From: a virus
DNA length: 64,000 nt
Direction: 5' to 3' (one strand)
Virus record (IMG/VR): IMGVR_UViG_3300033144_002959
Span: 29,709 to 93,708 of that record
Position 1 is the stretch's first letter. Each line of letters opens with the position of its first letter. Shown piece by piece: positions 6,210 through 61,607 of this stretch. Position numbers and translations under genes: made by a program. The notes beneath the pieces are model-generated. The model saw nothing but the letters and a program-made list of their open reading frames with translations, was not told the origin of the DNA and searched no databases.

Positions 6210-8408
6210 TTAGTCATTAGCTGGATCGAATAATGCCAGCGAGTTGATATTCCAAGGCACCGTCGTTGTCAACCCCGCTGGCAGTACCTCCCTCTTCAAG
6301 TCCTGTCGAAAATACTTCGTCACGTCCAGCGTCGCAAAGCGGCCAGCAGCACCAAGGGTCGATGTACCGGCAACAGATACTCGTGCTCGTACGTAATAAA
6401 ACGGACCTTGGCTGTTGATTGTCGTGACTATCCATCCCGCCTCCGCGTCAAACTCATATATAAATTCACCAACTGATCCAAAATTCGGATTCGGGTCTGC
6501 ATCTGTAAACGTCAGCGCAACCCACGCACCATTCCAAAACTCCCAGACAATCGTCGGCTCGCCCGCCGTATGCGCCACCGACACTTCCAACTTGAACCGG
6601 ATCGTGCCATTAGGGCCATTTATAAATTGTTCACTATGGCCCAAGTAGTACGCATCATTGACGTCCTGCGGGTTATCCGGGGTCAGAGTCATGTCATCGT
6701 CGGTCGAGCTGTTTGCTTCCATTGTCTCGTCGGTTAGAACCGCGCCATCATCAGCAACCGCTGCATTCGGCAAACCGTTCTGAGCCGCCCGCACGATAAT
6801 ATCGACACCCGCACCAAACGCACCTTCGTAGTTGAACGTGGTCAGAGCAGCCACGCCATTTGAGTCAGCAAGAATTTCCGCGATCACATCCCCGACAGTC
6901 AGCGACCCAACCGTTTCGTTGGCTATGAACTTGACCGCCGCGCCTTCGGTCATTCCGTTCGCTTCGATGGTCTGCGCATTGGTGATCGTCAGATTCGACG
7001 GGCTAGACAGCGACGTAGTATCCGTCGTAATCGTGCCCGCCCCGTTTTGTAAATTGATTGTAATAAGAGCTGTGCTCGTAACCGGATCAACATCAATAAA
7101 AGCATCGGCAGTATCATCAGCGCCATAGCCACTGTTCTGCCAATTGTCGAAGTTGTACACGAACGGCCCTGCTCCAGTAGGACGCAACCTCACGCCGTAG
7201 CCTGAACCATCACTGTTGAACGTCAGATCGGTCAGGTCACTCCTGTTGTGCTGGGTTTCGTCAAGCAGCAGCGCCCCGGTGGCATCGTTCGATCCATTGA
7301 ACGTAACCTGATCCATGTTTACGAGGCCGGGGTCAACCTGATCGCAATTAACCAGAATCGTAGCAACCCAAAACTTATCCACGTCGTTTGCTACGTTGCA
7401 ATTGATTGCGCCAATATCAACCAACGTACAGCTATTCATCTGCACGAAATCCATATCGGCATCAGACATATCAAACTGTGCTCGCGTACTGACCCCCACG
7501 ATAACAACGCGAGTTATAACCCAAGAATTTATGCCGGTCGAATTACCTACCAACCTAAATGGGAAGTGCGTGTCGGCCACAATATGACCGCCCTGATTGT
7601 CTCCAATCCAAAACCACTGAGTATCTGTCGAAGTGAAATAGCTATCTGACGTCCCTGCCGGTGGATTCCCCCATTGAGTCGGCGCGAAAAATCCATACTC
7701 AGTACCCTTCGGGTTGTTAACCATTCCCAGACCAGCGGTAATATCATCAGCAGCCACATCGACCATCGTTTCAGGGGTGCCGACTGTGCCACCCTCAATC
7801 GTCAACGCATAACCAGTAACAGACGAGACACTGTTCAGGATGTAATAGATGCCATCGCACCAAGCATTTTTCGCCGTCGATACAGCTTTCACCAACCCAA
7901 ACGAGCCATACCCGATTTGCAGAACAGCGGTGTGATCCAGTCCCGCTTCTGTGCCGTTATAAACGAAGTGATCAGTGCCCGCTGACCCCGGCGCTGCCAC
8001 AATCACAGACACATCGAGCTTCATAACGCCAAATCGAAACTCGTAGGGGAACCCTGCGATATCAGCACCATTAACGGCATACCCTACGATGTCACCGCCA
8101 GCACCATCGGCCCCATCGCCAAACGCGATCAGCCCACCGACGTTCCCAAAAAGCTCTCCGAGGTTGTACTTGATAATCATGTAGATAGTCATGTCCGACA
8201 TATCTACGTTGAACGTACTTCCGGCCTGATCTTGGTCGAACAATAAAACCTCTTGTGCGTCAGCTACCTGAAACTCAATAGAGTTCGAGCCTTGAACAAC
8301 GGTACCAACAATGTTGCTCGTTCCTGTAGGCGCAGCGGACGTATCGCCACTGACATCAGCAGCAGCTTCGCAGTCCTGAAGTCGAGTTCTGTTGTCAACC
8401 AGACTCAT
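6210..8408 (-). CDS. Large putative virion structural protein
   Basis: 732 aa, acidic beta-rich; C-terminal IVWEFWNGAW...YYVRARV jelly-roll-like module. Confidence 0.65.
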   Translation of the reverse strand: MSLVDNRTRLQDCEAAADVSGDTSAAPTGTSNIVGTVVQGSNSIEFQVADAQEVLLFDQDQAGSTFNVDMSDMTIYMIIKYNLGELFGNVGGLIAFGDGADGAGGDIVGYAVNGADIAGFPYEFRFGVMKLDVSVIVAAPGSAGTDHFVYNGTEAGLDHTAVLQIGYGSFGLVKAVSTAKNAWCDGIYYILNSVSSVTGYALTIEGGTVGTPETMVDVAADDITAGLGMVNNPKGTEYGFFAPTQWGNPPAGTSDSYFTSTDTQWFWIGDNQGGHIVADTHFPFRLVGNSTGINSWVITRVVIVGVSTRAQFDMSDADMDFVQMNSCTLVDIGAINCNVANDVDKFWVATILVNCDQVDPGLVNMDQVTFNGSNDATGALLLDETQHNRSDLTDLTFNSDGSGYGVRLRPTGAGPFVYNFDNWQNSGYGADDTADAFIDVDPVTSTALITINLQNGAGTITTDTTSLSSPSNLTITNAQTIEANGMTEGAAVKFIANETVGSLTVGDVIAEILADSNGVAALTTFNYEGAFGAGVDIIVRAAQNGLPNAAVADDGAVLTDETMEANSSTDDDMTLTPDNPQDVNDAYYLGHSEQFINGPNGTIRFKLEVSVAHTAGEPTIVWEFWNGAWVALTFTDADPNPNFGSVGEFIYEFDAEAGWIVTTINSQGPFYYVRARVSVAGTSTLGAAGRFATLDVTKYFRQDLKREVLPAGLTTTVPWNINSLALFDPAND

Positions 8409-32887: not shown

Positions 32888-33832
32888 TTAGCCGATGTTC
32901 GTGTACTTAACAGTGGCTTCCTCTTCCTCGTACTTGAAGTCCATCCGCATCGTCAAGACAATGATATACACACGAGCACTGATGTCTTTATCAGTCTCAA
33001 TATGGATGTCCCTCTGGATGCCGAAAATCATATTCAGCGGATTGGTCGTTAAACCATTCGACGCTGGCATGAGGCTGGCAGGATCGACCGCGACGCCGAA
33101 CCCGAACACTGGTGATGTGCCCTGAATCTGCGCGTCTCCCAAAGCCGTCTCACGATTCGCAAGCGAGTCGCGATAAGCAATTTCGTTATCCACTGAACAG
33201 AAGTGGCGCATCGCAGCACGGTTGCGAAGGTACTGATCAGGCATCGCCTGAAGACCTTGCTTCCATGTGTCCTTACTGATTTCAGCACCAGCAACGTCCA
33301 CAACATTGGTAGTGGACTGAATCAGCCAGCCATCGAGCAATGCAAGGAACGGATCGCCTGATCCGACGTCTCCGAGCAACGCCAGCTCTTCAAGGTCAAG
33401 CGCAGCACGCTCGGCAATGAGAGTCATGATCGTGTCACGGATACCGCCAGACGTCGGCGTACCATTCGTGTCGGTGTGCATACCGATATTGCCGCGCTCG
33501 ATATTGTCTTCGATAACGTCATACGGCAACCGCACTTCTGCGATTACTTCAGACGTTGCCAGCAAGACCTGCTCGGTCGTCGGGGCTGATCGATCACCCA
33601 CCACGAGAGGTGTGTTCGAAACAGCAGGGTGCAAGATTCGACTGGAAAACTGAATCTTGTTGATCTGCCGCTGCGGACTCGACATCGTCACGACACGCGA
33701 TTGATTGAGGATTGTAGGCTGAACGAGCAGCTTACGAATAAACTGGTTCGACTGTTCGTCGTTCAGTAGGCCACCGCTTGATAGATCGCCAACCGACCAG
33801 TCCGCTTTTTGCATCAAGTCTTTGTTGTCCAT
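32888..33832 (-). CDS. Major capsid protein (HK97 fold)
   Basis: GGLLNDEQSNQFI, YDVIEDNIE, AALDLEELALLGD, LDGWL, NPLNMIFGIQRDI; follows protease and scaffold. Confidence 0.92.
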   Translation of the reverse strand: MDNKDLMQKADWSVGDLSSGGLLNDEQSNQFIRKLLVQPTILNQSRVVTMSSPQRQINKIQFSSRILHPAVSNTPLVVGDRSAPTTEQVLLATSEVIAEVRLPYDVIEDNIERGNIGMHTDTNGTPTSGGIRDTIMTLIAERAALDLEELALLGDVGSGDPFLALLDGWLIQSTTNVVDVAGAEISKDTWKQGLQAMPDQYLRNRAAMRHFCSVDNEIAYRDSLANRETALGDAQIQGTSPVFGFGVAVDPASLMPASNGLTTNPLNMIFGIQRDIHIETDKDISARVYIIVLTMRMDFKYEEEEATVKYTNIG

Positions 33833-33876
33833 TTCAACTCCAAGTTTTCTGAGAATATAACCGTTGGTCGGAAGAA

Positions 33877-35259
33877 TTACGCAGCGCTTTCGATATCGCC
33901 TGCAATCCTATCCAGCGAAGTTCCGCCCCAGAACTTTTCGTCCGAGGCTTCGCCTTTTGAACGATGGGTGCCAAGACTCTGGTCGGCGTTATCGCCGCCA
34001 TCACTATTTGACGGAACAGTACCCTTAACAGCTTTAGTCGCTTTCTCCGCAGCCTCCGCAGTCGCATCAACCTTCTCGGTCAACTTGTCCTGCTTCGATT
34101 TTAGATCGGCAACTTCAGTCCGTACTCCGCTTACAGCCTCCAGAACTGGGGCCAGTGCTGCTTTGATAATCGCAGCAATGTCCTGTTCACTCTCATCACT
34201 CTTCTCAGTTGACTTATCGTCATCCGATGCACTTTCGTCTTTCTTGTCGTCTGACTTCGAAGCGGTATCGCCTGCTTTGTCGTCAATGTCCAAATCCTCG
34301 ATGTGGACGCTCTTCAATTTCTTGCGGTCCTCATCGGTTAGTCCGCCGTCTTTCTGGACCGCCTCACCAGCGTCGTCGCCTGCGGCTGCGTCGCCCGCAC
34401 CGCCTGCGTCCGCGTCACCGGCATCAGCGTCCGCGTCACCGGCAGCATCGGCGTCATCAGCCGCCGCGCTGTCTCCGGCGTCATCGGCACCATCGTCTGC
34501 TCCGGCGTCAGCATCATCTTTACCAGCTTCGTCGTCCCCGGCATCAGCGTCTCCAGCGTCATCGCCTGCATCTGCCTGCGAATCAGCTTCGCCGGGTGCA
34601 GGAGTTTCCAGTTCCATTTCGTCAATCTTAAATGCCACTTCCGGCAAACCATCAACGAAGCTGAGGACATGATTGGTGTACGCATTTAACAACGTACCGA
34701 TACCATTACGTGCAGCCGTCTGATCCTCGGCAGTACGCAGTACATTCCGCATCGTCTCCATCATTACATCCGTCGCCACATGGACACCCGGAAGGAATGC
34801 CCCTTGGCTAAAATTCTCAGCAAAATCAGTACCTTCGGGAAAAGGATCGAACTGTTTCTTAACCTGCTCAGAGGCATTCAGAAACAACCCACCCATTTCG
34901 TTGAGCTTGATCAGAACCACCTGATCTTCCTCAAAGTCGCACTGCTTCAGGATAACCACGTCATCTTTCTCAACGCGATCATCAATCTTCAGGCCCAACT
35001 CTTTTAGCTTGGGGCCAAACTCTGCTTCGTGTTTCTGTTGAACCACGATGCCCGCGAGTACGCAGCCGGTAGCCTTTGACTCGGCACCGTCCTGCTTAAA
35101 CATTCTTGTCAAATTGATCATCAAGCTGCCCTCCACTGGGTCATCTGCTTTCATTACTCGAAACGGAATCCTACTGGCTGGTCGAGTGACCAACGAAATG
35201 AAATTGACATCTGCGTCTTCCATCGCGTTTGCCTTCACTTTGATGCGTCGTGTTGTCAT
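33877..35259 (-). CDS. Scaffold/prohead-protease-associated protein
   Basis: N-terminal VNFISLVTRPA motif, long D/A/G low-complexity linker, C-terminal coiled coil, directly before capsid gene. Confidence 0.7.
   Translation of the reverse strand: MTTRRIKVKANAMEDADVNFISLVTRPASRIPFRVMKADDPVEGSLMINLTRMFKQDGAESKATGCVLAGIVVQQKHEAEFGPKLKELGLKIDDRVEKDDVVILKQCDFEEDQVVLIKLNEMGGLFLNASEQVKKQFDPFPEGTDFAENFSQGAFLPGVHVATDVMMETMRNVLRTAEDQTAARNGIGTLLNAYTNHVLSFVDGLPEVAFKIDEMELETPAPGEADSQADAGDDAGDADAGDDEAGKDDADAGADDGADDAGDSAAADDADAAGDADADAGDADAGGAGDAAAGDDAGEAVQKDGGLTDEDRKKLKSVHIEDLDIDDKAGDTASKSDDKKDESASDDDKSTEKSDESEQDIAAIIKAALAPVLEAVSGVRTEVADLKSKQDKLTEKVDATAEAAEKATKAVKGTVPSNSDGGDNADQSLGTHRSKGEASDEKFWGGTSLDRIAGDIESAA
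34365..34600 (-). repeat. Degenerate DAG/DDAG coding repeats
   Basis: ADAGDDAGDADAGDDEAG...; direct repeat GCGTCCGCGTCACCGGCA twice. Confidence 0.75.
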
Positions 35260-35873
35260 GCTGCCCTTTCACTTACCACGTTCACTTCCTCAGCAATGCT
35301 ATATCGGTGCGTGTGCCCGTCCGCCGCTTCAGTCACGGTGCCTCGTTGAATCTTGTGGCTATGCCCAGCATTCGTCGCCGTACTGCCTCCGAGAAAATTA
35401 CCCTCATCGTCAAACTTCACCGTGTACCGGTGTGTATGACCATCGGCTTCGACGGTAACACCTCCGAGAACGTCTGGCACCTCAATCTCGATGACTTTTT
35501 CTTTCATGTGTACAAGGGCTTCCATCGAGAAACCGTTAATCTCGCCCGACTTGATAGCCTCCCACATGCCAGCATCAGGCACGTGCATCCCAATAACCCA
35601 CGCCTCGGGAATGTAGATAACGTCATCTTCGCGAGCAATAAACGACTCCACGACAGTAGACCCATTCAGATTATTGTCATGGTTTGTATCGCATTGATCA
35701 AGAATTTGCTTGGTCATAAAGAGGTGAGCCATCTTGCGAACCTCAACCGGAGTCATAAATTCGCCGTGGACATCGGGGACATTCGGAGCGTACACCTCGC
35801 CATAAACGATTTGCAGCTCGTCGTCCGTTTTGCGGATCAAGCATTCCATGAGACTGGATGCTAAGACCTCCAA
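35256..35873 (-). CDS. XkdF-like prohead protease with His-rich C-terminal repeats
   Basis: IVYGEVYAPNVPDVHGE, DTNH, VVESFIA, WEAIKSGEINGFS; tail has GHTH, GHSH, GHTH. Confidence 0.85.
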   Translation of the reverse strand: MEVLASSLMECLIRKTDDELQIVYGEVYAPNVPDVHGEFMTPVEVRKMAHLFMTKQILDQCDTNHDNNLNGSTVVESFIAREDDVIYIPEAWVIGMHVPDAGMWEAIKSGEINGFSMEALVHMKEKVIEIEVPDVLGGVTVEADGHTHRYTVKFDDEGNFLGGSTATNAGHSHKIQRGTVTEAADGHTHRYSIAEEVNVVSERAA

Positions 35874-35900
35874 CTACTCTTTGCAAATAATTGGACTAGA

Positions 35901-36197
35901 TTATTCGAATCGTTTTGCTCGCCAACCAACGGTTGCCAGCTCGATTGCCTCTTCATCCGTGGGCACGGGATCGATGGTTTTCAGATCGAATTTGTAGCCC
36001 ATGAAATTATCCCGAATGAAATCGTTGTCGTGAATCACCCACTCTCCCGCTTCAGGATCGAAGCGCCGGAACTCATTGACAGGGGGCTTCGCCGCAGTAT
36101 CGTACTCCCAGCGGAACAACAGGAACGGGGCCTCGGAATGCTTCGACAGCATGTACCGTACCTGCTTGATTCTCTTTTTTGTGACTATGTCTGTCAT
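35901..36197 (-). CDS. Putative immunity protein for the MuF toxin
   Basis: 98 aa, ATGA-coupled to toxin stop; position typical of polymorphic-toxin immunity genes. Confidence 0.65.
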   Translation of the reverse strand: MTDIVTKKRIKQVRYMLSKHSEAPFLLFRWEYDTAAKPPVNEFRRFDPEAGEWVIHDNDFIRDNFMGYKFDLKTIDPVPTDEEAIELATVGWRAKRFE

Positions 36198-37786
36198 CCG
36201 CTCGGTCCATTAAATTCCGCAATTAGCCCATCCATGAATTCCATAAAGTCTGGTCTCGTAATCCCCTCGGCGTTTTCGACCATTTCAGCAAACATCGCTT
36301 TAGCTGTGGGATCGTTTGGATTCATTTCCCGCCACACTACGTAAATGTCATGATTGATTTTCTTTACTTCTATAGAGATTGGGGTGTGAAACTGGACTTC
36401 AATCTGCAACCCTTGCGGCGTTATCAGGTTGACATTTACGCCCTTATACTCCGGGCGCGAATCCCACGTGGATTCGAAGGAAGCGTTTTTGTAGCCCAAG
36501 TTTCTGAACCTTTCCATCACAGCCCGAATATCATTTACGTAATCCTCCGGCTCAGCCAGAAACGTGTACCGCAATGAGTCCGATATTCTCGCTGCCGCTT
36601 GCTCTTCAGTGACCCCGTACTTTTCCATCTGATTGCGAATCTTGCGCCTCGTGGACTTCAAATCCTTCAAGCGGTTATAGATCAACGTTCCGTCTTCAAT
36701 CGTTACAAGCCCATCGATACCGGGAAACTGCATTTCTTTAGAAGGAAAATCCATATCCAGTTCATCAGCCAGTCGAACCACGTCTCCAGTAACCGTGCTA
36801 TCAGACTCCCTCGCCAGTGCGACCATATCCCTTGCCAATGCAGCGACTAATTTTTCCTGCTCTGCGGGGGTAAACTCTTCACCCGGCAGCTCTACTATAT
36901 TTTCATTGATCGGTGTGACGTCGGCTGGCTGAGTCACCGTAACCGTTCCCGCTTTCACAATCACGCCCCGACACAATGGGTGAAATGGTGGCGTATCCCA
37001 ACCCTTATCCTGAACCTGAGATTTCGTCATCTGAGCAAGCTGGGCAACAGACTTCTCATCCTGCTTCGGCCAAGGAGCCACAGATTTCATGTCATCAGGA
37101 TTCGTTGTGGACATCCAGTTTTCCAGCTTGGCCTGCGCCTGCGGAACATCGAACGTGCGCCCGTGCATAGTCCGACATACTGGACAGGTCCGCCCATCGA
37201 GACGTTCATTGATCTGGAATTTACTGATACCTCTTGAAGTCGCCTCTACGGTGTACCCCCAGCTGGCCAGTCGTGACGTATGCAAACTTGAACCGATATC
37301 AATAAACGACTTCCCATTTTGGTTAACGCTACTGACAAACTCTTGCGGAAACCCCGGCGTTGCATCTTTTTTAACCGTCGCATCTTGCTGATCCGCCCGC
37401 TCACGTCCCAACATTTCAACAGCCAACCGGCACACAGACTGGGTCGCGTTTTCTTCCATCATAATGACCAGATTATTCGCCGCCAGCTTTATCTCTTCCG
37501 GCCTGCCAGTCTCCATGAATATAGATTTTCTCGGGTCACGGCTTAACCGGCTGGCCCCAAACAACACCGCTTGCATACCAATAAATTCAGCAAACCTACG
37601 GTTGTCTTCCGCCGCTTTGGCCAGACTAAACCCTTCACACAGATCAACAGCCGCAGCGAAATCGCCTGCGTTTACCAGCTCAAGCACTTCTCGGGTAAGG
37701 GTGGCAATATCACCGCGCCACGAATTTTGGATTCGGTTGCTGAGTGATTGTTCTAAGACTAAAAAACTTTTAATGCTGACAGTCAT
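36194..37786 (-). CDS. MuF minor head protein fused to RelA/SpoT-like alarmone synthetase domain
   Basis: MuF: LDGRTCPVCRTMHG and PPFHPLCR. C-terminus: RLKDLKSTRRKI, SDSLRY, YKGVN, IEVQFHT, HDIY (SYN1-4-like). Confidence 0.85.
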   Translation of the reverse strand: MTVSIKSFLVLEQSLSNRIQNSWRGDIATLTREVLELVNAGDFAAAVDLCEGFSLAKAAEDNRRFAEFIGMQAVLFGASRLSRDPRKSIFMETGRPEEIKLAANNLVIMMEENATQSVCRLAVEMLGRERADQQDATVKKDATPGFPQEFVSSVNQNGKSFIDIGSSLHTSRLASWGYTVEATSRGISKFQINERLDGRTCPVCRTMHGRTFDVPQAQAKLENWMSTTNPDDMKSVAPWPKQDEKSVAQLAQMTKSQVQDKGWDTPPFHPLCRGVIVKAGTVTVTQPADVTPINENIVELPGEEFTPAEQEKLVAALARDMVALARESDSTVTGDVVRLADELDMDFPSKEMQFPGIDGLVTIEDGTLIYNRLKDLKSTRRKIRNQMEKYGVTEEQAAARISDSLRYTFLAEPEDYVNDIRAVMERFRNLGYKNASFESTWDSRPEYKGVNVNLITPQGLQIEVQFHTPISIEVKKINHDIYVVWREMNPNDPTAKAMFAEMVENAEGITRPDFMEFMDGLIAEFNGPSG

Positions 37787-39629
37787 CGGGACGCTCAGCT
37801 ATAGAACTGGCAGCTCCGACAAGTTCAACAGCCCCGATCATGTCATGATCCACAGCGGACATCATTTTCAGAGTGCAATACCCATCAAACCGTTGTCGCG
37901 TAACTGCATCCATCCGTTCAATAGTGGTCCGCATTAACTCAGTTTCGGTTGCGGATACTTCGTTAGTCAACTGTGCTCGGCACCATTGGCCAACCAAGTC
38001 CATCATATCGAACGTATCCATCGCTTCCTTGCGCGACGGGGGGGTCGCTGGCTGCGAGGTGTTAGGCGGATTCTCAACGCCTGCCGTGAGTGCTGGCGCT
38101 GGCTCACCGACCGGTGCCACTATAACCGGAGGTTCAGGCTCTTCCGGCTCGCTGTCATCTGGTACCAGTGTCATACCAACAATCTCATTGACTGCTCCGA
38201 CTCTGGTCTCTCTCGACAAGTCTTCGGCCACGATACCCAGCGCTTCCAACTTGGTCTGCACGTCATCAACCGTCAACGGTAGTGACCTGAAAATAAACTC
38301 ACCTTCAGGGTCCAGTTCGCGCATGATCGTGTTGTTGATTATCTCATCGAACTCATCGCGCTCTGGTTGAAACACTTGCGCCTCGGTCACCGTGTAACTG
38401 GCAAACGCAGTTGCGAAACTGTAGTCCTGCGCTTTGCCCACAAAGATAGGGGGCAAGCGGAATGACGAACGCACACGCTCTTCACATCGAGCATCGTAAT
38501 TCTCAAACATCGAATCCTGAATACGCTCAGAACCAAAACGCTCTACCGTCACACGCACGGTACCGGGCTTATCCAATGAGCCTCCCGACGCAGCCACTTC
38601 GACAATGCCTGCCCGGTGATAGCTCGATCCCTTGCCCGACATATATTGCTGCAACTGCTTACGCACTTCGGGGGTCAACTCACCGCCCTGAATGATAATC
38701 AGCGCCGGAGGCAAGCCGCCGCTATTAAAGAAATCCAGATTCAACTCTTCGGCTTTACGGCTACCCAGTACGCTCGGAATCTGATTGATCCAACGTGGCA
38801 CACCGTAAGGAGTTTTCGCATCCTCATACACTGTGAAATACAGCACTTCGGTTGCCCGGTCTTTTATGTCCAGCTTTTCCTCACTCCATTCCCCGGTGAG
38901 TCTATTCAGCTCGCGGCTCGCGCCGTACTCTTTGAAGTAAATCACCCGCTTGCTAATGATCTGAGCGAACCGCCGCTCTCGAACATTCATCACAACTTCC
39001 ATTTCCTGACCGTCGCGCTGCACTTTCTGCTCAACCAATACGGGTTCATCCAGCTTCACCAGCCGCATTTGATGCGCCGGGATATGCTTCAGAAACATCA
39101 GCTCACCATCGATTGAACGCAGCACTTCCATGAATGCGTAGCCGACCTGCTCCAGATCGCGCCGGGTCTCGCGCCTCAATGTGGTGAATGACGTGCGGGG
39201 AAACGGTTCCTTGAACCAGTCTTCCAGCTTTTCTTTCTCTGGATCATTTTTAGGTTCGTCGTTCTCTTCGGCTTCATCATCCCTTTCTATTTCCCAGCCG
39301 GTGCCATCGATATTGACTTCCATTGCAGCAATCATCTGGCCCAGCGTATTATTGCGCTGGCACAGCATGGTCAATTGCTGGGGCTGAAACGGGGGGCGCA
39401 GCACTTGCGCCTCGGGATCATTCTTACGGGGGTCGAAAAAGAATGCTTCAAACGCATCGTCTTTTTCCAACTGACTACCAGCCAGCACTGCCTTATCCTG
39501 CTTCGACACGGTACCGGTTTTTACAACGGTCATGTGCGATGCAGGATCGCCCTGCACACCCATCGCGTTACCGAGAGACACGACTTTAGTACTCGGCCCC
39601 TCTCCATCACCCTTGTATATGATTGACAT
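37770..39629 (-). CDS. Portal protein (PBSX/P2-like)
   Basis: DLEQVGYAFMEV.R, YGVPRW, FFNSGGLP, FRLPPIFVG, VFQPER; ATG at 39629. Confidence 0.9.
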   Translation of the reverse strand: MSIIYKGDGEGPSTKVVSLGNAMGVQGDPASHMTVVKTGTVSKQDKAVLAGSQLEKDDAFEAFFFDPRKNDPEAQVLRPPFQPQQLTMLCQRNNTLGQMIAAMEVNIDGTGWEIERDDEAEENDEPKNDPEKEKLEDWFKEPFPRTSFTTLRRETRRDLEQVGYAFMEVLRSIDGELMFLKHIPAHQMRLVKLDEPVLVEQKVQRDGQEMEVVMNVRERRFAQIISKRVIYFKEYGASRELNRLTGEWSEEKLDIKDRATEVLYFTVYEDAKTPYGVPRWINQIPSVLGSRKAEELNLDFFNSGGLPPALIIIQGGELTPEVRKQLQQYMSGKGSSYHRAGIVEVAASGGSLDKPGTVRVTVERFGSERIQDSMFENYDARCEERVRSSFRLPPIFVGKAQDYSFATAFASYTVTEAQVFQPERDEFDEIINNTIMRELDPEGEFIFRSLPLTVDDVQTKLEALGIVAEDLSRETRVGAVNEIVGMTLVPDDSEPEEPEPPVIVAPVGEPAPALTAGVENPPNTSQPATPPSRKEAMDTFDMMDLVGQWCRAQLTNEVSATETELMRTTIERMDAVTRQRFDGYCTLKMMSAVDHDMIGAVELVGAASSIAERPDDCQH

Positions 39630-39635
39630 GCGTCC

Positions 39636-39651
39636 GTCCAATTGATTGGAT
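39636..39651. promoter_or_regulatory. 16-bp palindromic site, copy 4 (1 mismatch)
   Basis: GTCCAATTGATTGGAT between the putative -10 box and the portal ATG. Confidence 0.75.
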
Positions 39652-39658
39652 AGAGCGC

Positions 39659-39688
39659 ATCATACAACGTTCATTCAAAAACGTGCAA
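39659..39688 (-). promoter_or_regulatory. Putative sigma70-like promoter of the structural operon
   Basis: TTGCAC-N18-TATGAT upstream of the portal gene. Confidence 0.5.
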
Positions 39689-39691
39689 TTT

Positions 39692-40192
39692 TTAGAACTT
39701 ATTGGGTTCTTTTGCCGTTTTTTGATTCAATTCGGATGCTAATGACAACGCCATGAATTGCTTACTCAGCTCGGTGACCTCCTTTTTGAGCACTTCGAAC
39801 GGGGATGGTCCGAGCAATTCAGTGTCCTCAACTCCCGCTTCGGCAAGCGTCATACCGGCTTCCATAAAGTACCTGCACATTTCTTGCAGCGAGTGAATGT
39901 GTTCCCTCATCGAATCAACATGGGCCTCACCAGTCTGAACTCCCTTCGGCCTCATCCCGGCGCTCCACATTTCCTGCATCAACGTATCGGCCTGATCGTA
40001 ATCCAGACTCAACGTTGGATCACCGGGGCTGTACATCGCGCCCGCCTCAACCGTAATTTCCTCGACCTCCTTAAAGCGCCGATGAAACGATTCACCATTG
40101 ACGCCCTCGCCCATCCAGTAAAAATCAATTTGCTGCGACATGATGTTTCGATTTACGAACCATCGCCACGTTTTGTTGTGTTGAAACTTCAT
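39692..40192 (-). CDS. Hypothetical protein
   Basis: 166 aa ORF collinear with neighbours. Confidence 0.6.
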   Translation of the reverse strand: MKFQHNKTWRWFVNRNIMSQQIDFYWMGEGVNGESFHRRFKEVEEITVEAGAMYSPGDPTLSLDYDQADTLMQEMWSAGMRPKGVQTGEAHVDSMREHIHSLQEMCRYFMEAGMTLAEAGVEDTELLGPSPFEVLKKEVTELSKQFMALSLASELNQKTAKEPNKF

Positions 40193-40234
40193 ATAGATTC
40201 TCTCAAATCAGGGGATACCAAGGGTAGGGGTACT

Positions 40235-40504
40235 TCATTTTAACGCAGGAGGCGCGCTCTCAGTGCCCCGTTTCAGGGCCAACCCCGTGTAATTACTAGG
40301 ATTTTGGCGATATCGTTCACAATCCTCTTTGAACGCTTCGAAGTGCGGCAACGCCTCTTTACGATTCTCCACCCAAATACTTGCCTTGTGAAACGGGTAA
40401 TCGTGATTCGAATAAAACGTCACTTTCATTTTCGTGTCCGACTGCCTGCGCATTACCATCCTGCCAATAAAATACATCGGCAACTTTTTCTTGCGCTTAC
40501 TCAT
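40235..40504 (-). CDS. Hypothetical protein
   Basis: 89 aa, overlaps upstream stop. Confidence 0.5.
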   Translation of the reverse strand: MSKRKKKLPMYFIGRMVMRRQSDTKMKVTFYSNHDYPFHKASIWVENRKEALPHFEAFKEDCERYRQNPSNYTGLALKRGTESAPPALK

Positions 40505-40751: not shown

Positions 40752-40936
40752 ATAAACCCCTTTTCTGTTGCCACACTATCGTACAACTCAATCTTCGCAC
40801 TGCATCCCGGCTCCAGATCATCCTCCTGATCCAACACCTGACTCAACGGAATCCAGACCCGCTCGGTTTCAAACTCGACCAGCACCGCTTTCTCAGTCCG
40901 GTGCACCACGTGTATATCAATCCAGTGCGTCATCAT
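40748..40936 (-). CDS. Small beta-barrel phage protein
   Basis: TEKAVLV...VWIPLSQ motif; coupled to polymerase stop. Confidence 0.6.
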   Translation of the reverse strand: MMTHWIDIHVVHRTEKAVLVEFETERVWIPLSQVLDQEDDLEPGCSAKIELYDSVATEKGFI

Positions 40937-43251
40937 AATGGTAACTTCACAGTCTCTGCCAAATTGTTTAATCCGAACTCTACATCAACCGGGAAATCCA
41001 ACTGCGGTTTCCAACCGAATGCCCCCAACGGTAAATTCTCCATGACCTCTTTGATACGCCCAGCCCATTCCATATACTCATCCTCGGGCACGTAAAAACT
41101 CAAGCTGTCATGCGTGAACCCAAACATCCAAAGGTCTGGGTAACGCTTGTCCAGCTCTGCCATTGCCAGCAAACCCATGTCTGTCAACGTGGCCTGCACT
41201 CCAGTGTTCACTGCCTGCCGTTCACTCTGTGCCCGGATATCCTGCGCCCATGATTTGATCAATGGCAAATGTCTGATTCGACCCAGCGGAGACTCAATGT
41301 ATTTATGCTTACGGGCAAACGCTTTGGTCTCGTCATGCCACGGATGCAGCCGATCATACAGCCCAAAAAACGATTCTATGAATGCGTATGCTTCTTTGAG
41401 AGTCAGCGTCACCCCAAAAGATTTCTGTGCATAGTCCACAAAACCTTCCGCGCCCATCGTATAAATCAATCCGAAGTTTCCAGCTTTGCCCCCCTGCCTG
41501 ATATCAGCAATTGCCGGGTGTTTGATCGAAACCATTTCCATTGCTTCGGCCAGCTCCAGCCCATTCAACTGGGCACCGGTTTTCAAATGTAGATCGACGC
41601 CATCCTTGTACGATTGAATCATCGTCGGCTCATCAGCAATGCAGGCCACGATCCGTAACTCGCCCTGAGAGAAATCGACGTCCAGAATCACATAGCCTTC
41701 AGGCGGCACGTACACGCTTCTAAGCGGCTTTGCCCAGTCGGTATGCTTGGGTATCGTTTGGTACGCAGGTTCCTTTACAGACGTTCTCCCGGTACGTCCG
41801 CCGCTGTCATCAGCCTTTGTATCGTCGCCATGAAACAATCCACGAAAAAGCATATAGCTCGGGTGGAAACGGTCATCTGATCGCACGTGTTTCATGAACC
41901 CATCGATGTACGTGCTCTTAGTTTTGCTCGCCTTACTAAATTCCAGTAGCGCCGCAATGAATGGCCCAGCTGTTTTGTGTGTCTTGAACAATTCGAAGTG
42001 CGCCGCAGCTGTGCTCGGCTTGCCGGTCTTCGGCGTCATTATCTTTGGGGTGAGATTCAATCCCTGCCGAGTGAACAGAAAATCGGATACGATCTTTGGG
42101 CGACTGGGTCTCAGGTCTCGATAATGTTTATGCCGCAACGTGTACGGCAACATTTCAATCATAGCTTCCTGATTCGTTTCCAGAACCTGACTCACTTCCT
42201 CATCAAGTTCGTGGTACCGCTTCATGTCCACTACCATGCCGCGTTGTTCCATCTTGCGCACCGCATGTTGTGCCGGGTGCAGCAGCTTCTGATAGAACCG
42301 CAACAGCCGTGGTTGCTTGATCAACTGGCCACGCATCTTTTGTGCTACCTGAAGGCCAGCATCGGTATCGCCCCCAGCGTATTGAATGATGTCCGACTTC
42401 GGCACCAAATCCATTCGCGACTTATCGTACTTACGATTGAATTCGTCGTCATACCCGCCCATGCCCGTGTAAACTTTCGTGTGCAGGTTCAGGCTGTTGC
42501 TGCGGTTCTCTTGCAGCAACGATCCGACCAGTGTGGTGTCCAGTTTGAACGCACTGAAATCGTGAATGTCCCACTTACGCTCCAACCATAACGCATCGTA
42601 TTTGAAATTCGCGCCGTACAATTTAACCTCATTGCTAGAGCACAAGTAATCCAGCCACACCAATTCCTGCGCATCAGGCCAGCCAGCCTTATCGAAATAC
42701 ATGACGTAAGATTCACTCGGTGTAATCGTCAAACTCACTGCGACTATGTAAGCATCCGGGTCCATGTAATCCGTACCGACTGTTTCCAAATCAAGCGATA
42801 TCGGTACTGCCTTACCAGACAATTTGTAAGCTGCCTGAATCGTCTTCACGGGTTCCGCGAAACTCGTAACCTCTTTGTACACTCCGACAACCGGGTTCAA
42901 TGTTCCCTCGGTCATCAAGCGCATCGCGAGTTTCATATCCCAGAAGATTTCAGGACGTCTGGCGTAATCAAAAAAGGCCAGACTCGCGTCCCACGTCACG
43001 AGATACTGACCTGTATCTTTGCCAAGAATCACCCCACGCATACTGGTGATCGCTCGATTCTTCGGGGCGAACCCACGGGTCGCGAGTTCCTTGAGATTGT
43101 CTTTTCCGAATGCGAGACACACGTCTTTCGTCCCCATCTTTGTCGGAAACTTAGACACGCATTTATAAATGACCCCGGATTTTATAAGCCGGGGCCTGAC
43201 TAATTCTTTGAACGATTTGTCGTCGTAGTTAGCCCACGCTATTAGGGTCAA
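40933..43251 (-). CDS. polA: DNA polymerase family A with 3'-5' exonuclease
   Basis: ExoI LDLET, ExoII NFKYD, ExoIII YAGGD; motif A DFSQGELR, B RQGGKAGNFGLIY, C THDS. TTG start at 43251 after CATGGAGG (ORF track 43284). Confidence 0.95.
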   Translation of the reverse strand: MTLIAWANYDDKSFKELVRPRLIKSGVIYKCVSKFPTKMGTKDVCLAFGKDNLKELATRGFAPKNRAITSMRGVILGKDTGQYLVTWDASLAFFDYARRPEIFWDMKLAMRLMTEGTLNPVVGVYKEVTSFAEPVKTIQAAYKLSGKAVPISLDLETVGTDYMDPDAYIVAVSLTITPSESYVMYFDKAGWPDAQELVWLDYLCSSNEVKLYGANFKYDALWLERKWDIHDFSAFKLDTTLVGSLLQENRSNSLNLHTKVYTGMGGYDDEFNRKYDKSRMDLVPKSDIIQYAGGDTDAGLQVAQKMRGQLIKQPRLLRFYQKLLHPAQHAVRKMEQRGMVVDMKRYHELDEEVSQVLETNQEAMIEMLPYTLRHKHYRDLRPSRPKIVSDFLFTRQGLNLTPKIMTPKTGKPSTAAAHFELFKTHKTAGPFIAALLEFSKASKTKSTYIDGFMKHVRSDDRFHPSYMLFRGLFHGDDTKADDSGGRTGRTSVKEPAYQTIPKHTDWAKPLRSVYVPPEGYVILDVDFSQGELRIVACIADEPTMIQSYKDGVDLHLKTGAQLNGLELAEAMEMVSIKHPAIADIRQGGKAGNFGLIYTMGAEGFVDYAQKSFGVTLTLKEAYAFIESFFGLYDRLHPWHDETKAFARKHKYIESPLGRIRHLPLIKSWAQDIRAQSERQAVNTGVQATLTDMGLLAMAELDKRYPDLWMFGFTHDSLSFYVPEDEYMEWAGRIKEVMENLPLGAFGWKPQLDFPVDVEFGLNNLAETVKLPL

Positions 43252-43660
43252 CGACCTTCCTCCATGTTGCCTCAGCGGGATCACATTCCCACTTTCGGAC
43301 TACTCCTGAGTGTACCCGACTCGACGCTTGTAGAAAAGTTTTCACTGACTTAAATATCTCCGGCATTTTATAGTCCACTTTCGATCCATCGATCAGCATG
43401 ATATACGCCGGAACGTCCAGTCCGAAAAACACCAACATCAGATACAGGTCTCCGCGCACGTGCACGACCAGTGCAGATTGATTGCCTTTCTTTTTGTGCA
43501 TTGCTGCCACAATTTCCATCGGGCAACTCATTCGCATTGTCGGCACCATCGGTACCGACAGAGTGCCTTTACCTTTGACCGTACGCGCAGTCACACGTAA
43601 GTGCATTTTCAGCGCGTCCGCCATCCAGTACGAATGTTCTTTTGGTAACAGTTGATTCAT
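43229..43660 (-). CDS. Hypothetical protein
   Basis: ATGA-coupled to upstream ORF. Confidence 0.55.
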   Translation of the reverse strand: MNQLLPKEHSYWMADALKMHLRVTARTVKGKGTLSVPMVPTMRMSCPMEIVAAMHKKKGNQSALVVHVRGDLYLMLVFFGLDVPAYIMLIDGSKVDYKMPEIFKSVKTFLQASSRVHSGVVRKWECDPAEATWRKVVDPNSVG

Positions 43661-60022: not shown

Positions 60023-60439
60023 TCATGGCATTAAAATTCGTACTCTCCCTCCGATACGCTTCGCGTACCTGACTGATGCCCACGTGCCCGACCGCTGAAT
60101 TTCTTTCGGCTGAGCTGGGGCAGCAATTAAAAAATCTGACTCTTTTACAATCATGTGATTGCGATCCAAATATGGCAACGGCGAACGTACCTGCTTTACC
60201 GGCAACTCCAACAGCATGTCCGCCATCAATCGTTTGTCTGTCGGCGGATGCGCGATTATTCGATGTATGCCTAACAACCATTTCGCGAAGTCATGAAACT
60301 CACGGTCTGCACCAACACAACAACCGTGGTGCACTTCCTCAATGCCCTCATGCTCGTGAAATGACAGCATCGTCTTAATAAGCCCAACCTTCTGCCGATC
60401 AGACAAGCCATCGCGAGTACCGGTAAAGCCTAAGATCAT
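60023..60439 (-). CDS. SLOG-superfamily (YspA/DprA-like) protein
   Basis: ILGFTGTR, HHGCCVGAD, LDRNHMIV, SGTWASVRYA. Confidence 0.82.
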   Translation of the reverse strand: MILGFTGTRDGLSDRQKVGLIKTMLSFHEHEGIEEVHHGCCVGADREFHDFAKWLLGIHRIIAHPPTDKRLMADMLLELPVKQVRSPLPYLDRNHMIVKESDFLIAAPAQPKEIQRSGTWASVRYAKRIGGRVRILMP

Positions 60440-60675
60440 TCGCCTTTCCTCACTTCGAATAACCAGTTGAGCCTATCAGACCAGAACATCAAACGCTTCT
60501 GTCGTTCCAGTACCGCTCGCGGATTTTCCCGGCGTCTCTTGCGCCAGTAATACCGTGACGAACTGCATCGGCTACATAGCCCACGCATCTGATTTCCTTT
60601 TGGATACTCACCGTCCAGTGGAACAATAAGCCGCCCACACTTAGGGGTATCGCAAAGATTTTTTCTTCGTGCCAT
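60436..60675 (-). CDS. Small basic zinc-finger protein
   Basis: CDTPKC...GLCSRC; CAAGGAGG RBS. Confidence 0.6.
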   Translation of the reverse strand: MARRKNLCDTPKCGRLIVPLDGEYPKGNQMRGLCSRCSSSRYYWRKRRRENPRAVLERQKRLMFWSDRLNWLFEVRKGE

Positions 60676-61147: not shown

Positions 61148-61330
61148 TTACCTCTCTTCGTTGCCGAACGTCTCCATCCAGTACAACACAACTTCCTTGG
61201 CTTCCGCCTTGTCAACGTCGAACTCGCTCTCGACGTACGCGCCAGCACCAAACATATTCGTGGCACCGGACTCCCTCAGTCCATCCAGATAAACCAATCG
61301 TTCATCGGTCACACTCTCTGGTCTCGTCAT
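61148..61330 (-). CDS. Small hypothetical protein (LRESGxTNMF family)
   Basis: YLDGLRESGATNMFGA; ATG at 61330 with GACATGGAGGC RBS. Confidence 0.7.
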   Translation of the reverse strand: MTRPESVTDERLVYLDGLRESGATNMFGAGAYVESEFDVDKAEAKEVVLYWMETFGNEER

Positions 61331-61353
61331 TTTTCTGCCTCCATGTCTTCTGA

Positions 61354-61593
61354 TTAAACGTACACCGGCATCTTCGCAACGGTGCACACCACAACAGGCT
61401 TCAGCTTGTACAGGAATTCTTTCCCGCACTCTTCGCAGTCCACCTTGCCTTCACCCTTCAGTCCCGCACCATCTTCGTTTTTGTACGGGGACTCATTCGC
61501 CATTGCCGAAAACGGGGCATACGATATTTCCATTCCGTCTCCAGTGTGGTCGCAGTACGGGCATGTCATCGTAACTTCATTTTTCCCAGTCAT
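61354..61593 (-). CDS. Zn-ribbon protein
   Basis: CPYC...CEECGKEF; ATG at 61593 with GACATGGAGGC RBS. Confidence 0.65.
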   Translation of the reverse strand: MTGKNEVTMTCPYCDHTGDGMEISYAPFSAMANESPYKNEDGAGLKGEGKVDCEECGKEFLYKLKPVVVCTVAKMPVYV

Positions 61594-61607
61594 ACCTGCC
61601 TCCATGT

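Follow-up and report, generated by a model that had tools for sequence, protein, structure and literature searches.

MuF polymorphic toxins have been described as specific to temperate phages, and the papers that defined them left open whether they are carried in the virion and what role they have in infection (PMC12226406, PMC10083569). Fusions of MuF to RelA/SpoT domains were predicted by Zhang/Aravind and by Iyer et al. (PMC3482391, PMC5512222), with delivery together with the DNA as the predicted route (PMC5512222), and the Apk2-IapK-Aph1 system has been characterised (PMC10083569, PMC12226406). Among the 1,369 candidates for exported alarmone synthetases that were collected in one survey, 39 were MuF/SPP1-linked, and XopAD- and MuF-linked synthetases were listed there side by side (PMC12691689). 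Here we analysed 64,000 nucleotides of DNA from an uncultured phage (the window, by which we mean this whole stretch), which make up the right-hand 64 kb of a single viral record of 93,708 bp, IMGVR_UViG_3300033144_002959. Among the head genes of the window is a gene for a MuF head domain fused to a RelA/SpoT-type synthetase (SYNTH) domain, and its end is overlapped by a gene for a protein of 98 aa. We consider it probable that these two genes, with a hydrolase gene found elsewhere in the genome, are best explained as an Apk2-type MuF polymorphic toxin locus with a partner inhibitor and a hydrolase.

The class of system is already known, as had been pointed out in a sequence-only reading of this DNA, and the present locus is a variant of Apk2-IapK-Aph1. 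As in that system, a MuF N-domain and a SYNTH toxin follow directly after the portal gene, a small overlapping gene lies downstream, and an Aph1-type HD hydrolase is encoded in the same genome. There are five differences from the known systems. The Apk2 phages are temperate and 33-52 kb long, whereas the present phage is 94 kb, encodes its own replisome and has no integrase that we could find. Its MuF domain is of the Delepquintavirus/SIO-2-like type, unlike that of Apk2. The 98-aa partner is a member of a distinct, rare family whose sequence gave no significant match to IapK/Tis1_ImmP. The hydrolase is the third gene of the Apk2 operon but is unlinked here. Finally, sister phages carry ADP-ribosyltransferase (ART) or Zeta toxins that have been exchanged with the SYNTH cassette at a fixed junction. 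Neither the unlinked hydrolase nor the ART and Zeta swaps had been part of the sequence-only reading.

The MuF-synthetase fusion protein

The fusion gene (P0001) lies on the minus strand at 36194..37786 and encodes 530 aa, as defined by its open reading frame (ORF), its translation and its matches to PHROG, Pfam and NCBIfam families. Both ORFs of the locus, their ATGA coupling and all six motifs quoted in the sequence-only reading were found where that reading had placed them, namely CPVC (residues 201-204) and PPFHPLCR (266-273) in the MuF domain and RLKDLKSTRRK (372-382), DSLRY (403-407), YKGVN (447-451) and EVQFHT (463-468) in the SYNTH domain.

Residues 1-275 (36962..37786, minus strand) form the MuF/SPP1-gp7-like head domain, which is the conserved carrier part of the protein as judged from PHROG families and synteny. 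This part matched phrog_30193 at 1.8e-26, and the five annotated PHROGs that were also matched (phrog_9907, 115, 4728, 2841 and 241) are described as minor head protein or head morphogenesis. The curated thresholds of PF04233 (Phage_Mu_F; 15.5 bits, cut-off 29.6) and TIGR01641 (24.7 bits, cut-off 39.65) were both missed, and the Pfam result in particular speaks against a MuF domain. The assignment was made because these sub-threshold matches coincide with the likeness to several minor-head and head-morphogenesis families and with the position directly downstream of the portal gene. The closest cultured homologues of this part are the post-portal genes of the Stenotrophomonas phages DLP5, DLP3 and Summit (31-32% identity) and those of Vibrio phages of the SIO-2 type with genomes of ~81 kb. 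In DLP5, a ParB-like nuclease domain occupies the same post-portal slot. This DLP5 protein (L079, 1892-3232) is one of the two 'ParB-domain proteins' invoked for the maintenance of the DLP3/DLP5 phagemids, and it is more likely to be a virion-carried ParB-like nuclease payload than a partition protein.

The MuF domain is followed by an acidic linker with a pI of 4.05 (residues 276-359; 36710..36961, minus strand), which forms the first part of the swappable cassette described below and contains a long helix, seen as residues 8-43 of an AlphaFold2 model of residues 300-530. The remaining residues 360-530 (36197..36709, minus strand) were assigned to a RelA/SpoT-type synthetase domain from this model, Foldseek, phmmer and conserved residues. 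The model had a pLDDT of 90.9 and was built on 39 homologues with a mean column identity of 20%. Among the key residues (K374/K382, D403, R406, Y447-K448-G449-x-N451, E463 and Q465), D403, R406, Y447, G449, E463 and Q465 were invariant across the 39 homologues, and K448 and N451 were nearly so; K374/K382 were conserved as well. The protein thus has both the SYNTH fold and the catalytic residues of Syn1-Syn4. The Pfam family PF04607 (RelA_SpoT) points the other way, with 12.8 bits and an E-value of 0.15 against a cut-off of 27, and a six-frame search of the genome with PF04607 found nothing.

When the model was compared with solved structures by Foldseek, 40 PDB chains were found at E<=1e-3, and the matches listed were all alarmone synthetases, RSH enzymes or toxSAS. 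The best match was SaEAS, the exported alarmone synthetase of Streptomyces albidoflavus (PDB 8vx3; 4e-11, TM-score 0.69/0.77), followed by Tas1 (2e-6), SAS1/SAS2, CapRel (2.8e-5) and FaRel (2.4e-3). A phmmer comparison with 8vx3 gave an E-value of 1.4e-8 and aligned D403 with the D121A position of the crystal construct, and the ATP-site residues D121, R124, N169, E182 and Q184 of SaEAS correspond to D403, R406, N451, E463 and Q465. Unlike the present protein, SaEAS carries a Sec signal peptide, is not accompanied by an immunity gene and does not come from a phage context (PMC12691689). The toxin fold is also that of Tas1/Apk1 of the Pseudomonas aeruginosa type VI secretion system (T6SS; PDB 6ox6), but Tas1 is delivered through a PAAR/T6SS domain and its sequence similarity is weak. 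Among curated families, the best match was the C-terminal Rel-like domain of the XopAD/SKWP type III effectors (NF041399; 2.2e-22 over residues 310-492), at 78 bits against a family cut-off of 2000; those are plant-pathogen effectors of 2,000 aa, and only the terminal catalytic domain is common to them and the present protein. The fusion of MuF to a synthetase that had been read from the sequence was therefore confirmed by the PHROG head families for the N-terminal part and by the 8vx3 match and the invariant catalytic residues for the C-terminal part.

A profile built from the SYNTH domains of this phage clade alone gave its best score among characterised enzymes to the toxin domain of pneumococcal Apk2 (117.8 bits), followed by SaEAS (79.6 bits, E 2.1e-21) and Tas1 (23 bits), and the scores of Tas1 and SaEAS covered the same profile positions. 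In a pairwise comparison, the pneumococcal Apk2 toxin domain was 28% identical to the SYNTH domain (3e-17). The Apk2-type class suggested earlier was in this way upheld. Based on the fold, the conserved catalytic residues, the clade-profile scores and an acidic pI of 5.07 (net charge -6), we read the SYNTH domain as a putatively active nucleotide 3'-pyrophosphokinase of the Apk2 kind.

Judged by these likenesses, (p)ppApp is most likely to be the product, and both Apk2 toxin domains that have been tested experimentally, from pneumococcus and M. haemolytica, yield (p)ppApp alone (PMC12226406). Two published results weigh against naming a product. Motif swaps left the specificity of Apk2 unchanged (PMC12226406), and SaEAS, the closest solved structure, is dual-specific with a preference for guanine acceptors (PMC12691689), so the product is not readable from the sequence. 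An enzyme that makes (p)ppGpp or both alarmones, and that by its injected or late activity would impose a stringent-like state, is therefore a possibility, although we regard it as doubtful. It would fit the guanylate preference of SaEAS, the XopAD-type C-terminus as the strongest NCBIfam match, and the finding in the same survey that (p)ppGpp is the sole product of VpEAS and AaEAS (PMC12691689). However, the (p)ppApp-only toxin domain of Apk2 outscored SaEAS on the clade profile, the hydrolase of this phage is closest to Aph1, which is described as a (p)ppApp hydrolase, and (p)ppGpp restricts T7 infection (PMC13483052), so that making it could harm the phage.

The fold itself is common to nucleotide-making enzymes and to the tRNA 3'-CCA pyrophosphokinases FaRel2, PhRel2 and CapRel, which raises the question of whether the domain instead blocks translation by modifying tRNA and makes no free alarmones. 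CapRel and FaRel were among the Foldseek matches (2.8e-5 to 2.4e-3), and the presence of RtcB and tRNA genes in the phage makes tRNA conflicts relevant to it. On the other hand, the nucleotide-making enzymes were far closer (4e-11 for SaEAS in the structure search and 117.8 bits for Apk2 on the profile), the acidic SYNTH domain is a poor fit to a tRNA binder, and a nucleotide hydrolase of the Aph1 type is encoded in the genome. We find a tRNA-modifying enzyme very improbable and retain the pyrophosphokinase of the Apk2 kind.

A partner gene exchanged together with the toxin domain

The gene for the 98-aa protein (P0002; 35901..36197, minus strand) is a candidate for an inhibitor, or immunity protein, of the SYNTH enzyme, and its start overlaps the stop of the fusion gene in ATGA. 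The same MuF N-domain was found in eight viral contigs at 53-82% identity, and these contigs showed what happens to the small gene when the toxin changes. Identity to the MuF domain of the window was 74-82% in L001 and L002 and 53-55% in L012-L017. The C-terminal payload of L001 is a SYNTH domain with a 98-aa gene behind it. In L002, the payload is an ART (6886-7716; PF03496, 1.3e-11) and there is no small partner gene. In L013, L014 and L016, it is a Zeta toxin (L013, 4880-5812; PF06414, 2e-24) followed by unrelated ORFs of 92 aa and 59 aa, and in L015 and L017 a Zeta toxin and an ART are combined in a protein of 936 aa (L017, 4880-6757), followed by another small ORF. The small ORFs behind the other payloads, which are 92, 59 or ~79-96 aa long, had no family match and are candidate antidotes of new kinds.

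The breakpoints of the exchange were located by blastn against L002 (ART), L013 (Zeta) and L017 (Zeta plus ART). In all three comparisons the homology ended at window positions 36956-36962, at residue ~276 and just past the PPFHPLCRG motif. For L002 and L013 it returned at 35896-35902, the first bases past the stop codon of the small gene, and for L017 it returned at 35829. With such fixed breakpoints, the linker, the SYNTH domain and the small gene have been exchanged as one unit (35902..36961, minus strand), which argues that the small gene serves the toxin and not head assembly. The locus shows the defining behaviour of polymorphic toxin-immunity systems, and this exchange of cassettes is the strongest new evidence of our analysis.

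The partner was also inherited together with the synthetase. It lies directly behind the SYNTH domain and before the protease gene in all five loci that could be read (the window, L001, L003, L004 and L005), and it is missing where the toxin is an ART or a Zeta toxin. In L005 the partner is only 36-39% identical, and the ATGA overlap with the upstream stop is kept. The dN/dS values against L001 and L004 were 0.10-0.16, so the partner is a real, constrained protein under purifying selection. The idea of a coupled immunity gene, which had been put forward from the sequence, gains support from this strict co-inheritance with the synthetase and from the loss of the gene at every swap of the toxin domain.

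The partner belongs to a rare family. It had no Pfam, PHROG or NCBIfam match, and an exhaustive phmmer search of 1.84 billion representative proteins returned seven clusters, five of which are real relatives of 91-106 aa and two of which are artefacts from repeat proteins. When all seven partner homologues were aligned, their divergence was too great for pattern scans, and scans of viral contigs with the homologues P0045, P0046 and P0048 found nothing.

Three independent signals, each of them weak, point to a relationship with the immunity proteins Tis1 and IapK. The AlphaFold2 model of the partner (pLDDT 82.6) consists of a small beta-sheet and two helices. An exhaustive comparison of structures placed Tis1 (6ox6_B), which gives immunity to Tas1, third among 48,161 chains with a Z-score of 3.8, a root-mean-square deviation of 3.1 Å and 64 of the 76 Tis1 residues aligned. 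In the ESM Atlas, the nearest cluster bearing a Pfam family was Tis1_ImmP with a score of 0.75, which serves as a lead only. A profile-profile alignment of the partner with three IapK proteins from Apk2 phages by hhalign gave a score of 17.1, compared to 10.3 +/- 2.4 for column-shuffled controls, of which 3 in 200 reached 17.1 (p ~0.015), and the aligned segment has a common F-[DE]-P-x(3)-E-W stretch. Several observations tell against such a relationship: the Z-score of 3.8 for Tis1 was shared by unrelated chains and lacks significance if taken alone, a search of the genome with PF24154 (Tis1_ImmP) gave no match even at an E-value of 10, and the partner had no significant sequence match to any single IapK. 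Foldseek of the partner model against the PDB likewise gave nothing at E<=1e-3. We conclude that homology of the partner to Tis1/IapK is probable but unproven, and infer that the partner would act as an inhibitor of the SYNTH enzyme.

The 98-aa protein could instead be a chaperone, an adaptor for packaging or some other accessory factor dedicated to the toxin domain. This is suggested by the lack of significant sequence homology to known immunity proteins, by the weak structural match, and by the need of full-length T6SS Tas1-like effectors for chaperones (PMC10083569). However, according to a study cited in PMC10083569, small putative immunity genes lie behind 89% of 191 MuF toxins, the present gene moves together with the toxin domain but separately from MuF and the protease, and the three weak signals point specifically to Tis1/IapK. 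We therefore see an accessory factor as unlikely and prefer a role of the partner in immunity.

The arrangement also bears comparison with the polyvalent and MuF-fused effectors of phages (PMC5512222) and with T4 Alt, which are capsid-borne enzymes acting on entry. The relatives of the present protein carry ART, Zeta, zincin or ParB-like modules. More distant SYNTH relatives, the nearest that lie outside this lineage, are themselves polyvalent: the metagenomic protein P0008 (904 aa), which passes PF04233 at 30.9 bits, has the order MuF-SYNTH-HEYGH zincin-like, and the metagenomic protein P0009 (585 aa) has a ParB-like (DGHHR) domain followed by SYNTH. The present payload differs from the long polyvalent proteins in consisting of one domain that has a partner gene of its own, as is typical of cassettes for a toxin and its immunity protein.

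An unlinked Aph1-like hydrolase

A six-frame search of the genome with HD_4 (PF13328) found a gene for a protein of 144 aa (P0052; 60711..61145, minus strand), predicted to be an HD-domain alarmone hydrolase of the Aph1 type. The PF13328 score was 27.2 bits, exactly at the cut-off, and the protein has the HD...ED metal site in the motif LHDVVEDTE; the gene is preceded by an AGAGAGG ribosome-binding site. In the PDB, the best match was to Aph1, a (p)ppApp hydrolase (7smg, 2.2e-10), and small alarmone hydrolases and hydrolase domains of Rel ranked behind it. The protein matched phrog_990 at 2.2e-34 and was 39% identical (1e-16) to Aph1 of the pneumococcal prophage IPP32, a member of the apk2-iapK-aph1 operon. 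The gene lies ~23 kb upstream of the cassette among non-structural genes. Its flanks in the window (60023-60675 and 61148-61605, minus strand) hold four small genes without a Pfam match, the products of which are a 138-aa protein starting with MILGFTGTRDG, a Cys-rich protein of 79 aa and proteins of 93 aa and 83 aa.

The hydrolase may have nothing to do with the cassette. Such hydrolases are carried by 448 of 50,697 GenBank phages (~0.9%), most of which have no SYNTH gene, and there is no SYNTH gene on the contigs with the three closest hydrolase relatives, including a complete phage of 335 kb. Both observations weaken the link to the cassette, since such hydrolases often occur without SYNTH. 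Together with the distance of 23 kb and the surroundings of non-structural genes, they would suit an enzyme that degrades host alarmones against the stringent response or against defence, given that alarmones restrict phage infection (PMC13483052). In contrast, the best E-values among cultured phages were to the Aph1 genes of Apk2-carrying Mannheimia and Aggregatibacter phages. Relatives of the hydrolase were found in 61 uncultured viral loci; a SYNTH gene is no more than 4 kb away in four of the closest seven, and the chance of both rare genes occurring together in one genome was roughly 1%. An independent hydrolase is a serious possibility, but we lean towards a hydrolase that belongs with the synthetase. 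A search for the hydrolase in the ART, Zeta and close SYNTH sister contigs, which are fragments that are 8-34% complete, gave no match. A separate case was seen in the L022 record (IMGVR_UViG_3300031867_000021, 107.6 kb, complete; 63656-64348, minus strand), where a SYNTH protein of 555 aa, which scored 8.8e-35 against the clade profile, is encoded within 4 kb of an Aph1-like gene 45% identical to the present hydrolase.

Genome context and a possible role in infection

The record is classified in IMG/VR as 100% complete with direct terminal repeats, and an exact repeat of 114 bp was found at its ends (G000:C1:1-114 = 93595-93708). An overlap left by the assembly of a circular or permuted genome is a likelier origin of this repeat than a pair of physical termini, so the order in which genes enter the cell is not readable from the ends. 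The stretch is carried by hydrothermal-vent metagenome runs, and no RNA run was listed among the public runs carrying it. No GenBank phage was matched when the locus was searched by megablast. Nearly all genes of the window, including all genes of the locus, are on the minus strand. The portal gene (37770..39641, minus strand; PF04860, phrog_12) is directly upstream of the fusion gene, and the gene of an XkdF-type prohead protease (35256..35873, minus strand, with an alternative ATG start at 35849; PF14550 2.4e-25, phrog_15223 8e-74) is downstream of the 98-aa gene, which agrees with the position between portal and protease that had been proposed. Past the protease are an acidic scaffold-like protein and the major capsid protein (phrog_1623, 1.4e-98), and this order of portal, MuF fusion, protease, scaffold and capsid matches that of DLP5 and the Apk2 phages. 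A scan of 33500-40300 for promoters and terminators found no more sites than in shuffled sequence, which gives no ground for proposing an internal promoter.

Replication genes are found close to the head genes. A family-A DNA polymerase (40933-43284, minus strand; an ORF of 783 aa, phrog_17 at 5.6e-105) is encoded ~1.3 kb upstream of the portal gene with four small genes of no known function in between, and with the polymerase so near the portal, replication and head genes are interleaved. The large terminase subunit is encoded far from the head genes (genome positions 863-2782). Besides the DNA polymerase and the terminase, the genome encodes two helicases, a DnaB-like helicase with a loader, a primase, a UvsX-like recombinase, an exonuclease, a thymidylate synthase and RtcB. 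The RtcB-type tRNA/RNA ligase lies outside the window in the replication region (L008; G000:C1:16707-17897, minus strand; phrog_1075, 4.7e-138) and suggests repair of tRNA damage inflicted by the host.

In GenBank phages, this SYNTH domain was found only in records of <=52 kb, namely temperate phages of Streptococcus and Pasteurellaceae and Ralstonia records, so a setting of 94 kb is unusual. Six-frame searches of the genome with hidden Markov models found no tyrosine integrase, serine recombinase, ParA, ParB or HTH_3 (CI-type) repressor. Neither the partner family nor the capsid protein turned up when 185,579 bacterial species genomes were scanned by pattern; as the scans were limited by their patterns, this speaks only weakly against copies in prophages. 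The nearest cultured relatives of the head module are the Delepquintavirus phages DLP3 and DLP5, which have ~96 kb and no integrase but give rise to stable lysogens; DLP5 was isolated in phagemid form, and similar behaviour has been suggested for DLP3 (PMC7326821). With integrase-less relatives that are temperate, we do not call the present phage lytic. The sequence-only reading had stressed the lack of a visible integrase, and while none was found, the point carries less weight next to DLP3 and DLP5.

A mechanism can be proposed by analogy to known systems. The MuF N-domain would be a portal-associated minor head protein that carries the pyrophosphokinase at its C-terminus, and the enzyme would transfer pyrophosphate from ATP to the 3'-OH of adenine nucleotides to give (p)ppApp, with a guanine or dual acceptor as a possible variant. 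The translationally coupled 98-aa protein would be produced in step with the enzyme late in infection, and would bind and block it much like Tis1/IapK, sparing the producing cell before assembly. A few copies of the enzyme would then enter the capsid with MuF and be ejected with the DNA. The precedents for this step are SPP1 gp7, a minor capsid protein of low copy number that binds the portal and the phage DNA before injection (as cited in PMC10083569), and T4 Alt, an injected enzyme (as cited in PMC10083569 and PMC5512222). Once injected, the enzyme would drain ATP/ADP and shut down host metabolism, and the Aph1-like hydrolase would afterwards degrade the product. By our own estimate, at a turnover like that of Apk1 or SaEAS, which is ~1e5 per minute (PMC12691689), a few molecules could be enough to consume the ATP pool of a cell within minutes.

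The toxin could also act in or from the producing cell, either as a competition factor at lysis or as a benefit in episomal lysogeny, and need not be delivered with the DNA. MuF toxins were described as features of temperate phages with an unknown role (PMC12226406, PMC10083569), and the integrase-less Delepquintavirus relatives form lysogens, with DLP5 as a phagemid. However, an enzyme that acts in the cytoplasm would be released into the medium with no evident route into other cells, SPP1 gp7 binds portal and DNA before injection in the account cited above, no lysogeny marker was found in the genome, and neither the capsid protein nor the partner family was seen in the pattern scans of the bacterial genomes. 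This alternative is in our view quite improbable, and delivery with the DNA remains the preferred route.

A bolder proposal, which we put forward only tentatively, is that the phage, which encodes its own replisome, is probably virulent and would use a capsid-delivered synthetase as a timed device for host shutoff. The ejected enzyme would collapse the adenine-nucleotide pool, and the hydrolase, expressed from the non-structural region, would restore it. Late in infection, an inhibitor of a new and very divergent Tis1-like family would silence newly made enzyme until it is packaged, and in sister phages the MuF slot would have been reloaded with ART or Zeta toxins.

The same MuF-toxin logic is thus found here in phages of ~94 kb that encode their own replisome and in which no genes for lysogeny could be detected. 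At one junction just after the HPLCRG motif, four payloads (SYNTH, ART, Zeta, and Zeta plus ART) have been exchanged for one another, and this fixed junction marks the end of the MuF carrier and the start of the cargo. The lineage offers a new partner family and a split arrangement of two presumed antidotes. If the host-shutoff proposal is true, MuF polymorphic toxins would be infection tools of lytic phages and not only features of temperate phages, and a cultured relative, if found, would allow a direct test of MuF toxins as infection effectors.

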